Of a DNA stretch of 64,000 nucleotides, positions 38,619-53,600 are shown piece after piece. This DNA is from Phoronis australis (lineage: Eukaryota > Animalia > Phoronida), in assembly GCA_002633005.1 (NCBI GenBank), contig NMRA01000191.1, positions 426,466-490,465 of the forward strand, written 5' to 3'. The stretch's first letter is position 1. Every line of letters begins with the position of its first letter. The notes beneath the pieces were generated by a model that saw only the letters and a program-made list of their open reading frames with translations, did not search any database and was not told the DNA's origin. The position numbers were made by a program, and so were the translations under genes.

Positions 38619-41600
38619 CTACGGCATGCCATTGGGTGGCATGCCTATGGGGCCGAGGTCAGCGTTGTTCTTCATAAAGAACTTCTCCAACTTGGCCAAG
38701 ATGTGCTTGCCATACGTGTACTTGCGCAGCGTGGCCACGTGAGGCCGGATTTTGTGCATCAGTGTCTTCCGTTGGGTAGGTTCGGCCACGTCTATCATCT
38801 TCTGCACCACGTAGTTGGCAAACTGATCCTTCATCATTGTGCACAGTGCACTCTGCGGCCTGCAATGGCACAAGCTACTATCAGGAAATTCACATTTGTG
38901 GAGTGCTTTGGGGAGTTAGGATTACGTAGGACCCTATCAACAAGTCTGTGTATTTGACCAAATACCAACAAAATCGCAAATTTTATCTATGAAGTAAAAG
39001 TACATATTTTCTGATAGTAGACGGCCTGTAGAATTTCATTTACTTTTTAACAATCAGCCATGACCATTGACTTTTAAATATAGCAAAAAAGAAAAGTACA
39101 TTCAGAGCAAATCAATGGTATAAATAACACGACAATATTTCATTTAGTATAAATATTCAAAATGATATCTCAAAATTCCAGTTACGATTTTCTAAATAAT
39201 GATTTCATTTGATATTTCTTTTTTAGTAACATTGCAAAGGTGCCATTTCTGATAGCCGCTCATGCAAAACTGGAACATTTCAAACACAATCCCTAACGGC
39301 ACAACTGAGAAAAATACACCAAGCTGATTATCCGACAGTTTCATGTCAATCCAAACACCAATTCCAAGATACAATGTACCGAATTTTGCTAGGGTCCCGT
39401 AAAACCGTAAGCAGCATACTTTGTTAAGATTTTGACAACCAGCCAACGGACTACATACAAAAAATGATCGAGGCTAAAAGCAATAAACCACTAAATAACA
39501 AAATAACAGCTATTAAAATAACCAATGAGAAGTAAAGTCTGTATTAATACTGCATTTAAACAAACTGGCCAACAAGTCTCCTGCCACACCTACCCGTCGT
39601 TAACGGAGCAGACTTCCTCAATCAGCTGCGCCTTCTCGGCTCGGTTGCCATGGGTGACGCACTTCTCCACCACGTTACTGGCAAACTTGTGCTGACTCAG
39701 TCCCAGCACGTGCCCGCGCAGCTCATTGACGATGCGACTCTTGTCGTCGGCGCGGCCGTGCTCCAATACGTGCTGCACAACGTAGTTGCCGTACTGGTCC
39801 TGCACCAAACGTTCCGTCTGCTCATGCAGCTCGTCCAAGATGGGAGACGTCTGCTCAGACGTGCAGTGCTCAAGGATGCGTTGAATGACACGGCAGCCAT
39901 ATGGATGTGTAGACAGAATAAACACCTGTAATGAGGAATACAGCTCATCAGGTAGTGACTTTCATTGTGTCATTTGAGGGGAAAATTAATTGCACCTAAC
40001 AGATATATTGCAACTGCGAGGCATCGCCTGTGATTCCCCTGACTACAAGGACAAGCATCAAGTTATGTTCCCAATGTTAGCTGCGCAACAATAACTTGTC
40101 ACAAAAAGAGGGCAGTTTTCCAGGGTTAGTGAGCTACAAACCAATATGACAACTGCATGGGCCTGAAGATTTTGTCAATTCATTTTCTGTGAACACAACG
40201 TGAAACAAACAAACACGTTGCTTTGGCACATGTACAATGCATGGTTTATCTCCCTCATTATGGCCACCGTGTGACTACAGGAAGTTTATGGAATATGCAT
40301 GGTCCAGTCGCCTCAACAGTCAACAGACTGGAGTCGATGGTTCATCTTCAACACTATGGTGCGGGAATATACCACAAGCCTGTCCTACAGACAGTCGGCT
40401 CCCAGAGACCACACAGACACAGCCAGGTCACCAATAAGGCAGCCTGGGTATCAATGTTGAGCTACTTGAAAACAGAATCAACAGGACTAAACATTTTCAA
40501 TAAAATGTATTGAGAAACAGGTCAACTTGCCTGCCATCCAACTACCAAAAGAATCGTCAAATTTAAGTTTGAACAAATAAGCTTGTTACGCATGACAAAC
40601 AACATTTCTTCAGTTGATTCCGAGCAATACAGCCAAACTGTCCCTTGTTAAATTCAGAGATTGACAATCTAGTTATTAAGAATTAAACGTTTCCGACATG
40701 TTCTTTCGTAACAGCTCCACAGTAGACATGAGCCATTGGCAATGAGGACAACATTTTTGAGAAACCTGAAGACCTGAATTTCCAAAATTTGTAAATTAAC
40801 AGAAATGCTCACACGAGTCTGACAAACAAGTGTCTAGAACATATGGTACATGCCAAAAGCGTCAAGACAAAATGACCCCGAATTCCCTGCCATGACGATT
40901 TGGCACAAGCTGAATTCAGTGTCACAGCAACTTCATGGCTGAGAATGAAGGCGAATAGAGAGTCAAGTTATTGGCTAAGCTATTTCATAAATAGAATTTT
41001 GCCCTTTACATAATTAGCCATCGTGATGGGGAAGCCGTAATTTGACCACAATTTTGCTTTGTACAGTGAACATTATACTGCACTGCTTAACCCACCTGTC
41101 CCTTGAATGCATCAATGATGAACTGTAAGTGCTGCGGGTCGACACACTCGATGCACTTCTGTACTACGTGGTTACCATTCTGGTCCTTAACACACTTCAG
41201 TACGTGACCATCCAGCTCCTTTACTACCTCCACCTATGGGCAGAACAAGACAACAAATGCCTGAGACTAGAGTGGAGACAGCACAAAACCTTTGACGCAC
41301 CAATGCAAACTATTACCAAGAATAACATGACAAATTGCAATGGGCAAATCACTCACTTAGTGTTGTACAATGCATGGTTTATCCCCCTGATTATGGCCAC
41401 CATGTGACTACAGGAAGTTTATGGAATATGCACGGTCCAGTCGCCTCGACAGTCAACAGACTGGAGTCGATGGTTAATCTTCAACACTGTGGTGCGGGAA
41501 TATACCACAAGCCTGTACTACAGACAGTCGGCTCCCAGGGACCACACAGACAGAACCAGGCTACCAATGAGACAGCCTAGGTGTCAATGTTGGATTGCTA

Positions 41601-50600: not shown

Positions 50601-53600
50601 CTAAACGGATGTGAAAGTTTTAAATTTGGAAGTTGAAACAAATCTCAGACTCAAGTCAAAAATTATTTTAAGTCAGTTTCTTGGAACGGTCCCCAAGTTG
50701 AGATCAGTTTTACAATGGAAGTTGGTGGTAGTCCAAAAAGATAAAAATTATTTTAAATGTAGACGTGGGACTGAGCACTTTTCCTTCAACTACAAACGTT
50801 TTTGTTCCCAGGTTCCAACTTTTTATCATCAGAATTAAAAGAGTTATTACCTGGAGAAATTGGTAAAATCAGACATTATAAAAACATGTTCATTCTCTCC
50901 CCTTGGCCATGTTTCATAACGTGTGAGTGTACTTTGTACAATGCATGGTTTATCTCCCTGATTATGGCCACCGTGTGACTACAGGAAGTTTATGGAATAT
51001 GCATGGTCCAGTCGTCTCAACAGTCAACAGACTGGAGTCGACGGTTCATCTTCAACACTGTGGTGCGGGAATATACCACAAGCCTGTATTACAGACAGTC
51101 GGCTCCCAGGGACCACAAAGACATAACCAGGCAACCAGTGAGGCAGCCCGGAGGTCAATGTTGACAACAGTATTCACTGGAGTCACATTTCATTCAAAAT
51201 TTATGTCGCTCAGCGATCCCACCCTTTCCACAACACACACGGAGGTAAAAATTTTCAAAACGTCACGCAAAGGACTGAAGAGCTTGAAGGAAAGCACTCT
51301 TTAAGAAAAAGCAGACAAGCAATACCTTGCTGGCCGGCCACTAGAAAGGGAGCAGGGGAAACGAGTCGCACCGGCGTGCCAATGCCCCGCCCATTGCCCA
51401 TGATGAGCTGTCCATTCTGGTCGTAGTAGGCAGGTGCCAGAATTTGATAGCCACCAGCTGGAAATGAAATTGACGACAAAGGTTACCACAACACAATGAC
51501 ACTTGACGTGTGAAGTAGCTAATTTATAACATACCAACAACAAGGCTATGACAGCAATTTCGAACGATACCTGTAGGTTCCAACTGGGCAGCTCTTCAAA
51601 ATTGCAGTCATGTTGGCTTTCCTCACATTATGTTGCCTCAAGTCAATGAACAAATACCAGTGTAAACTTATGTTGGTTCAAGTCAATGAACAAATACCAG
51701 TGTAAACAGAGTCTACCTTACCAAAGAACGAATGCAATCTTCATTCCATATTTAGTAAACAGCAATTACTTAAATACATTCTCAATAGAGAAACATACTT
51801 AATCATCTGTGATAAGCCTGGTTATTTCACATCACTCAAAAACATTTCAAGAAAATGCTCATTTCCCCCAAAACAAACGTTCAAGCTAAGTTCAGATTCA
51901 CCACCAGCAAACTCAACAGTTCACTTACAGAAGTCCATGATGTTAGCTGGCATCTGCTGCATGCCTGCTGCATTGCCCATCTGGTCGGGCCCCTGTTGCT
52001 GTTGCTGCTGCTGCGGTGTCTGCGGCCCCTGTTGCCCAGGCTGTTGACCCTGCTGTCCAGGCTGCTGCTGCTGTTGCTGCTGGGAAGGGGTCAAGGGTCG
52101 TCCCTGGGTGGGCGTGCCACGCATCAGTTGTTGTGGGGTCTGCTGACCGGCAGGCATCTGCTGGACGAGGTTAGCCGGGTAGATTCCCCAGGGAGTCTGC
52201 AGGCCATAATACTGTGGGTTGACCATGGGACCTGCAGTACCAGAGAAACACATGGAGGTAACATCCTATAGCAACACTACAGTTGGGTTCAGTTTACTCA
52301 ATGTACCTGTGCCTGTAAACAGCCACTTGATACCAACTTGCCCATTAAAAGAAATTGCAAGAACAGATGATAAACATTTAGTGTAAATACAAATAAAAAC
52401 TTGGGTAATAGGCAAATAGCTTCCACTTTGTAAACTAGACTCAACAGAATCTAGACCTACAGGTCTTTTAATTAAGTACAACACTACACCATACACGCAT
52501 TCAGAATTTAACAGAAAACAACTGACGTACGTAAACATACCTAACAGCCATTCATGTGAACGAAAGCAAATTATATTAAAACAAAAAGCCCAGGTAGCCC
52601 TGGCGCAGTCATCGTGACCATCCAGAAGAGCGCAAGTCACAACAACTCCACGGTGTAGGTTACTTAGCGGATGACTGCGCGTGCGGGCAGCCGGTGCGAG
52701 CGTGTCTGACCTGCGATGGGGATGCCGACAGCGTAGGGGTCCTGTGCGTTGATGACGTATGGGACGGGAGCGAATGTGGTGGGTGTCAAGCCTACAGCAC
52801 AGAGCAACACACAGTCAGAGAAGCCATGCCACATGCCAGTGAGTGAGAGGTGAGTGCCCGCCCCGTGCCTGCTACAGCCCAAGTGCTTACGATACTCTGG
52901 ACAGGGTCGCTACACAAACAAAGCTTGCTACCAACAAATGCAGGGGAACAGGTATCACGTTCAATGGTTCTACGTCTGAAGTGTGAAACAGTACAAGTTG
53001 CCGAGAACGGTTTGCACAAAGGTATGCACAACGAGTTAAGTCTTTGCGACATGCAAGCTGTCGAGTTAGTTGTTCTCAAGTTAAAAAATACAAAGAGTGT
53101 GACGTCAGACCCTCGAGCAAACGGCTGTGCAGACAGAAGGGGGCATTCATCAGTGTTGACAAAATATCACATGAACTGGACCGTAACTGAACTGTAATTC
53201 ACAACACATTGGTCCGAGAGTTTGGTACTGTTTGTACAATATTGAACTGATAAGCCAAAGCAAAGGGTTAACAATTAAGAAATTAAGAAAAAAACGTGCC
53301 AATTGTGGATGGACGTGGCCACCAATTGGACAACACGGTTGCAACTAAATGAATGTGACATGCAGCTCACCACTAATCAGAAAAGAGAAAACGGGCCATG
53401 CATAATTTAGATAAGATGATACATCGCAACAAGTAAACCAAGGAAATTTACATTAACAGTTCAACAGTGCTGGATATAAGGCCCGCGCTACGTTACTTGT
53501 ACATTATCAGTCTTGGTGAAGGTTTTCCTTGGTACAGCTACCTACCCATTTGCTGCTGCTGTTGCTGTTGTTGTTGCTGCGCCATGGCGTACTGCTGTTG

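Follow-up and report, generated by a model that had tools for sequence, protein, structure and literature searches.

A Pumilio gene of Phoronis australis hosts three U17/SNORA73 snoRNA genes and two U17-like H/ACA-type elements

A Pumilio (pum) gene lies on the minus strand of the window, by which we mean the whole stretch of 64,000 nucleotides of Phoronis australis DNA analysed here, and three of its introns carry intact genes for U17/SNORA73, a small RNA required for ribosome building. Two further introns hold longer, U17-like elements, i12 and i10, and a decayed U17 copy lies beyond the 3' end of the gene. The original prediction for this DNA had counted three copies, which is correct for the intact ones, though the decayed fourth copy and the two U17-like elements had been overlooked. 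The features, all on the minus strand, are as follows.

36300..58783, minus strand: Pumilio host gene (partial model), with 16 coding exons at 58783-38600 and a 3' UTR of about 2.3 kb
40228..40460, minus strand: U17/SNORA73 copy 1, in pum intron 14 (Rfam, 93.1 bits)
41361..41593, minus strand: U17/SNORA73 copy 2, in pum intron 13 (Rfam, 90.5 bits)
50932..51164, minus strand: U17/SNORA73 copy 3, in pum intron 8 (Rfam, 90.2 bits)
43480..44336, minus strand: i12, a U17-like H/ACA-type element of about 857 nt, in pum intron 12
46319..46614, minus strand: i10, a U17-like H/ACA-type element of about 296 nt, in pum intron 10
35933..36022, minus strand: decayed U17 copy (3' half), about 300 nt beyond the pum 3' end

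The pum model is an uninterrupted frame of 1,040 amino acids over 16 exons; its 5' end was not located, and exon and intron numbers start at the first exon found. That the host is a Pumilio gene, as had been proposed, is borne out by the PUF repeats and by a match of 79% to mammalian PUM2 in exon 15; a protein search with exon 4 found no relative. Clathrin light chain, examined as a guide to the clade, has its best matches in gastropods, at 87%. The splice joints of all nine introns inside 35400-52400 are confirmed in each of three raw RNA runs, which also supports the earlier placing of the three U17 copies in different introns (14, 13 and 8) and in sense with the host, and the 3' UTR is backed by RNA read depth. 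An Rfam scan and a motif scan of the pum introns for C/D snoRNAs gave no convincing candidate.

Rfam cmscan returned exactly three SNORA73 (RF00045) matches, each spanning positions 1-219 of the 219 of the model with E of about 1e-20 and scoring 90-93 bits against a gathering cut-off of 74 bits. This covariance-model check, which the original prediction had suggested, upholds the U17/SNORA73 identity; the coordinates given there hold for copies 1 and 3, but Rfam places the end of copy 2 at 41593, not at 41594. Copy 1 lies 635 nt from the 5' splice site and 302 nt from the 3' splice site of intron 14. Over 230 nt any two of the three copies agree by 92-93%, and all retain, as claimed, the H box (AGAUGA, AGAUUA and AGAUGA in copies 1 to 3, each of the form ANANNA), an ACA three bases from the 3' end, and the invariant motifs m1, AUAUUCC(AU), and m2, AAACCAU, which agree with the entries in Table 1 of PMC7601244. 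The expected variability of the 5' hairpin is also seen, the first hairpin (columns 9-45) holding 12 of the 29 variable columns, and variable columns make up 18/113 of the 5' domain vs 8/117 of the 3' domain. Across 19 U17 sequences the closing helix and 3' hairpin covary, with 95.6% of cells paired and a two-sided change in 9 of the 27 pairs.

We considered a SINE or snoRNA retroposon as an account of copies 1-3 and rejected it, the copies having near-single-copy DNA depth at 93% likeness and no duplications; older copies may lie elsewhere in the genome. The depth of DNA run X1 in their bins is 35-76, where single-copy DNA gives about 45 and a nearby repeat 150,000, and the copies are therefore not a SINE; their flanks have at most 5-6 letters in common, none positioned as a target-site duplication. 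On both points the original prediction stands, as it does in treating the short antisense open reading frames as artefacts, plus-strand RNA depth being 0 in the bins of copies 1, 2 and 3.

The m1 and m2 motifs of U17/snR30 pair with rm1 and rm2 in ES6 of the 18S, and this pairing permits 18S cleavage. Those of copies 1-3 form 8 + 6 bp with the ES6 of a proxy 18S (L168), which is not the 18S of the species itself; the ES6 type of this proxy recurs in 14 of the 47 18S loci retrieved, with an animal origin established for none. The three U17 genes likely provide the usual 18S-processing snoRNP. A U17 pattern search of metagenomes gave 119 loci, 40 of them with an HMM match; m1 AUAUUCCAU is common to 14 of 16 metagenome U17 rows, and tblastn matches to pum were found in 0 of the 119 loci, many of which are only about 660 nt long. 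At two of the loci (L052 and L013) exons for ribosomal protein L3 follow downstream of U17, which likely lies in an intron of that gene.

The decayed copy, with traces perhaps as far as 36122, matches the intact ones at 74-76% (E 1e-8 to 2e-12). It keeps m1, but m2 has become GAACCAU, the ACA is lost and there is no H box; it scores 32.5 and 28.7 bits with two U17 covariance models built here, has no Rfam match at E 1, and RNA depth is 0 in 35400-35966.

Elements i10 and i12 both have the layout of helix, H box, hairpin and ACA. In i12 a 9-bp closing helix (44335-44327 with 43618-43610) precedes an H box at 43608-43603 and an ACA at 43485-43483, and the 5' domain contains an insert of about 580 nt; in i10 the H box lies at 46425-46420 and the ACA at 46324-46322. 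The H boxes read AGAAUA in i10 and AGAUUA in i12, and an ACA follows the 3' hairpin in each. The closing helix of i12 is present in the MFE and centroid folds (z -3.2), with a pair probability of about 0.5 when flanks are included, while the 3' part alone folds no better than shuffles (z +0.83); the fold of i10 has z -3.5. Between the two elements there are two ordered matching pieces (E 3.4e-5 and 2.2e-5), their 3' hairpins compare with z 7.6, and on these alignments they appear clearly related to each other. Telomerase RNA was considered and rejected, a template-like hexamer being present in neither. A search for homologs gave 0 matches to a metagenome pattern and none under E 1 in the 119 loci.

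Is either element related to U17? When the three U17 copies are made into an HMM, i10 and i12 come directly behind the decayed copy among its matches (E 0.0096 and 0.013, the following match having 1.2), and an HMM of i10 and i12 has the three U17 copies as its top non-self matches (E 0.0007-0.004; following match 0.5). The helix layout is the same as in U17, and blocks are conserved between the 296- and 857-nt elements. The U17 covariance models built here miss both, R1 giving E 0.53 and 1.6 and R2 nothing at E 1 or less, and a whole-length alignment of i10 with copy 3 scores above 500 of 500 shuffles (z 3.2), a level that unrelated windows of the same DNA equally reach. We set aside a motif descriptor that finds only the five elements, and do not use its chance figures, because it was drawn after i10 and i12 were known and because the U17 copies do not match its 5' half. 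A kinship of i10 and i12 to U17 is, as judged from sequence and predicted layout, moderately supported.

The elements might instead belong to an existing metazoan H/ACA family, of guide snoRNAs or scaRNAs, that Rfam misses because of divergence and the insert, with the likeness to U17 reflecting only the common H/ACA build. The failure of the U17 covariance models would fit such an origin, as would the best sequence likeness being a 26-nt stretch that ends at the H box and the presence in the i12 3' hairpin of UGAG, the CAB-box motif of scaRNAs. We nevertheless think it unlikely: Rfam offers no family for either element up to E 10, i10 is without UGAG in its 3' loop, the 5' domain of both repeats the unusual three-way layout of U17, and the conserved pocket residues are basal, as in U17, whereas in modification guides they lie beside the upper stem.

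Rather improbable, to our minds, is a reading of i10 and i12 as decayed, functionless U17 pseudogenes, with decay from the 5' side stalled in i12 by some trapped protein or structure. A truly decayed U17 copy does lie in the same locus, PMC1802619 describes U17 retrogenes as common in human, i10 shows no RNA step, and the i12 3' hairpin has a 3-base deletion allele (7 of 12 and 22 of 35 reads). Yet the same derived m1 and m2 equivalents and other blocks recur in i10 and i12 despite a threefold difference in length and free divergence elsewhere, and both keep the H box, ACA and helices, of which the decayed copy has lost the first two.

The m1 and m2 equivalents of i10 and i12 read CCRGCUY and GAGCYGC; they are mutually complementary, and the m1 equivalent is unable to pair with rm1. 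When targets for the two elements were sought in a non-animal proxy rDNA unit, no site beat shuffles, the best joint site being reached by 7 of 60, though the test is weak because the true U17 site also fails (43 of 60). For both i10 and i12 the top joint match is formed by the two strands of 28S helix 90, and we treat this as a single short match, since the two pocket strands are complementary to one another in the way that the strands of helix 90 are. Scans of viral contigs for rRNA gave fragments only, or nothing.

RNA runs X6, X7 and X8 are raw reads from one study, and the edges of the depth bins were set from the predicted element ends before the data were inspected. The bin of copy 1 has a depth of 35/32 (X6/X7) vs 2.1/1.3 just upstream, the step being absent in X8, and the unique intron downstream of the copy still has 24/40. 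At copy 2 the depth is 11/12 vs 0.9/0 upstream, about two thirds of the reads having letters of copy 1 or 3 and being perhaps cross-laid; in the intron of copy 3 it is 8-20 in X6 and X7 vs 0.3-1.1 in X8 (50142-51275, coarse bins). For i12 it is 19/26 at 44109-44336 vs 2.0/1.7 at 44337-44564. Thus at the predicted 5' ends of i12 and copy 1 depth jumps about tenfold in two of three runs and continues down the intron; X8 is without any steps, and i10 has none, at a depth under 2. These three libraries show no discrete mature U17 RNA of about 230 nt and, likewise, no 3' ends of i10 and i12.

In introns 14, 12 and 8 the depth begins at the predicted 5' end and persists almost as far as the 3' splice site. 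Internal transcription starts or retained-intron isoforms might also produce this pattern, and the snoRNAs may then influence pum splicing in cis or yield capped transcripts of the SPA type. Examples of SPA and snoRNA-retaining transcripts have been described (PMC11028025), i12 and copy 3 both have AATAAA/ATTAAA signals downstream, and in X7 60 reads cover the joint that follows exon 15 vs 26 for the joint before it. Against this, the steps coincide with element ends that the helices define, the sequences upstream of these elements being unrelated; joints do not rise downstream of intron 12 in X6 or X7 (38 to 30 and 32 to 24); and depth in the 5' portions of these introns stays close to background, so that plain retention and stable lariats are excluded. 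We allow this account a small but real chance of being correct.

The explanation that we favour, and regard as probable, is that the pum introns hold three intact U17 genes together with i10 and i12 as likely older U17 offshoots, predicted no longer to dock on ES6. U17/snR30 is normally freed from the spliced intron by exonucleolytic trimming, after which the H/ACA core assembles. The U17 copies would have spread by duplication within the pum gene, and i10 and i12 would descend from an early duplicate in which the closing helix, H box and ACA were kept while m1 and m2 changed, their mutual pairing now presumably closing the pocket. Both elements are predicted still to load H/ACA proteins, the RNA steps may represent intron RNAs that are 5'-trimmed, snoRNP-protected and 3'-untrimmed, and i10 and i12 might work as a non-modifying scaffold snoRNP with a different, putative partner. 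A bolder version, which we consider quite unlikely, is that U17 duplication within pum produced in them a second H/ACA chaperone family, retargeted by reprogrammed m1/m2 and with one member enlarged to about 857 nt, acting on a different RNA helix, for which 28S helix 90 in the peptidyl transferase centre would be the best candidate, and that the capped intron RNAs are natural H/ACA-ended long RNAs made from the gene of a translational repressor.

These elements are the more surprising part of the locus. To our knowledge, U17/snR30 is regarded as conserved, with m1 and m2 changing only in step with 18S, and our literature search found no account of pumilio as a U17 host, nor of U17 paralogs whose m1/m2 are altered; U17 hosts of lophotrochozoans may already appear in a survey of exceptional animal snoRNAs from 2011 or in its supplement. 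If i10 and i12 are true relatives with both motifs rewritten alike, they would show how a non-modifying rRNA chaperone is retargeted or disarmed, and since they lie beside intact copies in one gene, motif-swap and knock-down tests are direct. Rfam-based annotation can, moreover, overlook long intronic H/ACA-type RNAs in invertebrates.

The three intact copies are an ordinary finding, host switching and multi-intron copies having already been published, and they merely extend a host list known to vary. In human U17 sits in SNHG3/U17HG, and in Xenopus it occupies each of the six introns of a gene for a ribosomal protein (described in PMC7601244), and PMC2655684 describes several host switches within vertebrates; the predicted switch is thus real relative to human but, given these reports, not surprising. 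Hosting might, as the original prediction has it, couple 40S biogenesis to a translational repressor, though co-transcription with the host holds for any host gene. Copies 1-3 are like U17/E1/SNORA73 - snR30 (RF00045, clan CL00078) in their boxes, basal m1/m2, closing helix, internal hairpin and intronic position; they differ from known U17 in the pumilio host and in an m1 of AUAUUCCAU, not AUAUUCCUA, and from the U17 of the animals tabulated in PMC7601244 in length (233 nt vs 203-222 nt). Copies in separate introns are likewise described there for Xenopus and Fugu U17 (ribosomal-protein gene) and human U17a/b (U17HG/SNHG3), but the pum host is an mRNA-binding repressor with two diverged elements, whereas the Xenopus and Fugu host is a ribosomal-protein gene and the human host non-coding. 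Pumilio itself serves as a host in vertebrates, where chicken PUM1 carries three C/D snoRNAs in introns 9, 12 and 21 (as given in PMC2653536); the PUM1 snoRNAs HBII-251/U103 (SNORD85/103) differ from U17 in class and target.

SPA lncRNAs, the SNORD86 cSPA and snoRNA-retaining transcripts resemble the pum RNAs in having their 5' limit at a snoRNA and carrying the downstream intron; the known natural SPAs are C/D-capped, H/ACA-capped ones being only expected in the account of PMC11028025, and the pum RNAs are known here from read depth only. Elements i10 and i12 are built like U17 (RF00045), from which they differ in m1 and m2, the model having failed to find them. Unlike yeast snR37, they show no canonical guide for the target uridine of snR37, and we saw no sequence link to it. 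As described in bioRxiv 10.64898/2026.03.20.713187, snR37 is a bifunctional H/ACA RNA, long and atypical like them, whose 3' pocket is blocked and which serves as a scaffold at the peptidyl transferase centre; given the closed pocket and scaffold role predicted for i10 and i12, we offer this likeness as a functional analogy.

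We report a pumilio (pum) locus of Phoronis australis in which three intact U17/SNORA73 copies lie beside what are likely two U17 offshoots with jointly altered motifs, i10 and i12, both unannotated; i12 is the one with RNA support, which it has at its predicted end. The features are listed below.

40228-40460, minus strand: U17/SNORA73 copy 1, full-length, Rfam 93.1 bits, pum intron 14
41361-41593, minus strand: U17/SNORA73 copy 2, full-length, Rfam 90.5 bits, pum intron 13
50932-51164, minus strand: U17/SNORA73 copy 3, full-length, Rfam 90.2 bits, pum intron 8
46319-46614, minus strand: i10, U17-like H/ACA-type element, ~296 nt, pum intron 10
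43480-44336, minus strand: i12, U17-like H/ACA-type element, ~857 nt, pum intron 12
35933-36022, minus strand: decayed U17 copy, 74-76% identity to the U17 3' half, E 1e-8 to 2e-12, 32.5 bits
9498-9570, minus strand: tRNA gene scoring 73.9 bits, Thr(UGU) by its anticodon loop
48996-49489 (pum intron 9), 13640-14150 and 63842-63979: MITE-like high-copy repeat, DNA depth ~150,000

The host model comprises 16 minus-strand exons in a single open frame that has PUF repeats at its end, with exon 15 sharing 79% identity with mammalian PUM2; introns are numbered from the first exon found, the 5' end of the gene not having been located. Stranded reads from three RNA runs of one study (X6, X7 and X8) skip all nine pum introns within 35400-52400 and, together with the PUF repeats, bear out the original prediction that each copy occupies its own Pumilio intron. 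The long, AU-rich 3' UTR (36300-38600, minus strand) carries the Pumilio-element-like motif TGTAHATA at 37888 and 36345, and autoregulation of pum through these sites is possible. Window positions 1-35400 hold an ANKHD1/MASK-like ankyrin-repeat gene (minus), 4E-BP (plus) and the adjoining clathrin light chain (plus), one exon of which is closest to gastropod proteins (87%). Compared with human ANKHD1 and EIF4EBP3, which adjoin each other, the ANKHD1-like gene and 4E-BP are divergently oriented here.

The three U17 copies are real and add one unremarkable member to a family already known. As had been predicted, the Rfam covariance search returned three full-length matches, all above the SNORA73 cut-off of 74 bits; the H box, ACA, m1 and m2 are retained in all three; 12 of the 29 variable columns fall within the first (5') hairpin; and the likeness (92-93% mutual identity) ends at the model ends, with no target-site duplication found at any copy. 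DNA depth over the copies (35-76, against ~45 for single-copy DNA) is near the single-copy level and so excludes many near-identical dispersed copies, upholding the view that the unit is not SINE-like, and the RNA runs gave no plus-strand RNA over the short ORFs spanning the copies, which supports their reading as antisense artefacts. At 40256-40385, RNA reads mapped to copy 1 with all three copies available as targets have copy 2 letters at one place and copy 3 letters at others, which could reflect gene conversion among the copies, other alleles or cross-mapped reads.

Intronic U17 is trimmed from the spliced intron, and its m1 and m2 pair with rm1 and rm2 of 18S ES6 (PMC7601244). The m1 of the present copies, AUAUUCCAU, is common to 14 of 16 aligned metagenome U17 sequences, the search pattern having favoured that form, and the predicted m1/m2 pairing (8 bp + 6 bp) is with an ES6 type carried by 14 of the 47 18S loci fetched, no locus being demonstrably animal. 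Across 19 sequences, many rows of which are related, there is covariation in the closing helix and in the 3' hairpin. By comparison, the decayed copy, ~300 nt beyond the pum 3' end, retains m1, has an altered m2, is devoid of ACA and H box and has no RNA over it in the RNA runs; we infer that it is a pseudogene.

In both i10 and i12 a closing helix precedes the H box and ACA comes after the 3' hairpin; each also has the two inner stems of U17 and a small internal hairpin. They fold better than shuffles as wholes (z -3.5 and -3.2, respectively), while the 241 nt at the 3' side of i12, folded by themselves, do not. An alignment of the two 3' hairpins reaches z 7.6, and i10 aligns to intron 12 as two ordered pieces separated by ~580 nt (E 3.4e-5 and 2.2e-5). 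Kinship with U17 has reciprocal HMM support (E 0.0096 and 0.013; reverse E 0.0007-0.004) and none from two U17 covariance models, the global i10/U17 alignment score is equalled by unrelated windows, and no Rfam family fits either element at E <=10; on these comparisons, descent of i10 and i12 from U17 is reasonably probable. Aligned by the basal stem, m1 has become CCRGCUY and m2 GAGCYGC, which are mutually complementary. Since this m1 equivalent cannot pair with rm1, we rejected membership of U17 for both, even if U17-derived. No homologs were found outside the window, including among the metagenome loci. The i12 5' domain also has 10-nt and 9-nt antisense matches (44119-44105 and 44268-44260, minus strand) to the 18S stretch that is the methylation target of vertebrate PUM1-hosted SNORD85/103; the matches lack flanking C/D boxes, and chance alone would give ~2.5 9-mers of this kind in the pum gene.

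RNA depth was compared in bins whose edges were fixed from the predicted element ends before the reads were mapped. At the i12 5' end, depth in X6/X7 is 19/26 in 44109-44336 versus 2.0/1.7 in 44337-44564, remaining at 11-33 down the intron. The corresponding values are 35/32 versus 2.1/1.3 for copy 1 (24/40 in the unique intron below; copy 3 is the source of some reads, with loose ends, 12 and 8 reads) and 11/12 versus 0.9/0, partly cross-mapped, for copy 2. There is no step in X8 at i12, copy 1 or copy 2, nor at i10 in any of the three runs. The presence of this snoRNA-ended intron signal in X6 and X7 and its absence from X8, at equal pum mRNA depth, suggests tissue- or condition-dependent processing. 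Because mature U17 is unenriched, the libraries, unspecified in the record, were probably poly(A)-selected. The steps fit snoRNP-protected, 5'-trimmed RNAs with the 3' side not yet trimmed; they also fit SPA-like transcripts (snoRNA-ended lncRNAs; PMC11028025), which short reads do not separate from the former, and the short reads are compatible with internal transcription starts.

A non-animal rDNA unit served as proxy in the target search for i10 and i12. The best joint site for both pocket strands of both elements comprises the two strands of one 28S helix, helix 90, and is equalled by 7 of 60 shuffles, a test in which the true U17 site fails as well; in scans of single strands, no match exceeded the shuffles. 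Separately, L001:3720-3743 and L003:8001-8024, on giant-virus contigs, are 24-nt exact matches to conserved 28S rRNA in otherwise non-rRNA DNA. Telomerase RNA was rejected, neither element having a telomere template. Given no significant rRNA site and no such template, we commit to a reading in which i10 and i12 would be non-modifying H/ACA scaffolds, the pocket closed or retargeted, by analogy with snR30 and with yeast snR37 (bioRxiv 10.64898/2026.03.20.713187).

That U17 lies in pumilio introns is not very surprising. No report of it was found in the literature searched, which did not include the chief survey of exceptional snoRNAs in animals, and none of the 119 metagenome loci examined has a pum exon. 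Forty of the 119 have a U17 match, two of them upstream of ribosomal protein L3 exons. Several (L015, L018, L019, L026, L063 and others) have two or three copies 0.5-2.3 kb apart with no coding exons evident between them, possibly the non-coding host gene of another animal. The predicted host switch relative to human stands in that pumilio replaces a non-coding host (PMC7601244); it is not unusual, since U17 host switches are already known within vertebrates (PMC2655684). A coupling of 40S biogenesis to transcription of a translational repressor through this host, as originally proposed, would be a further, hypothetical step. The expectation that human PUM1 hosts C/D snoRNAs agrees with a locus table pairing it with SNORD85 and SNORD103A/B (PMC9152224), and PMC2653536 gives chicken PUM1 three snoRNAs, so that pumilio is a snoRNA host there also, but of the C/D class. 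Xenopus, like Phoronis, has several U17 copies in the introns of one gene, there six introns of a ribosomal-protein gene (PMC7601244) and here those of pumilio.
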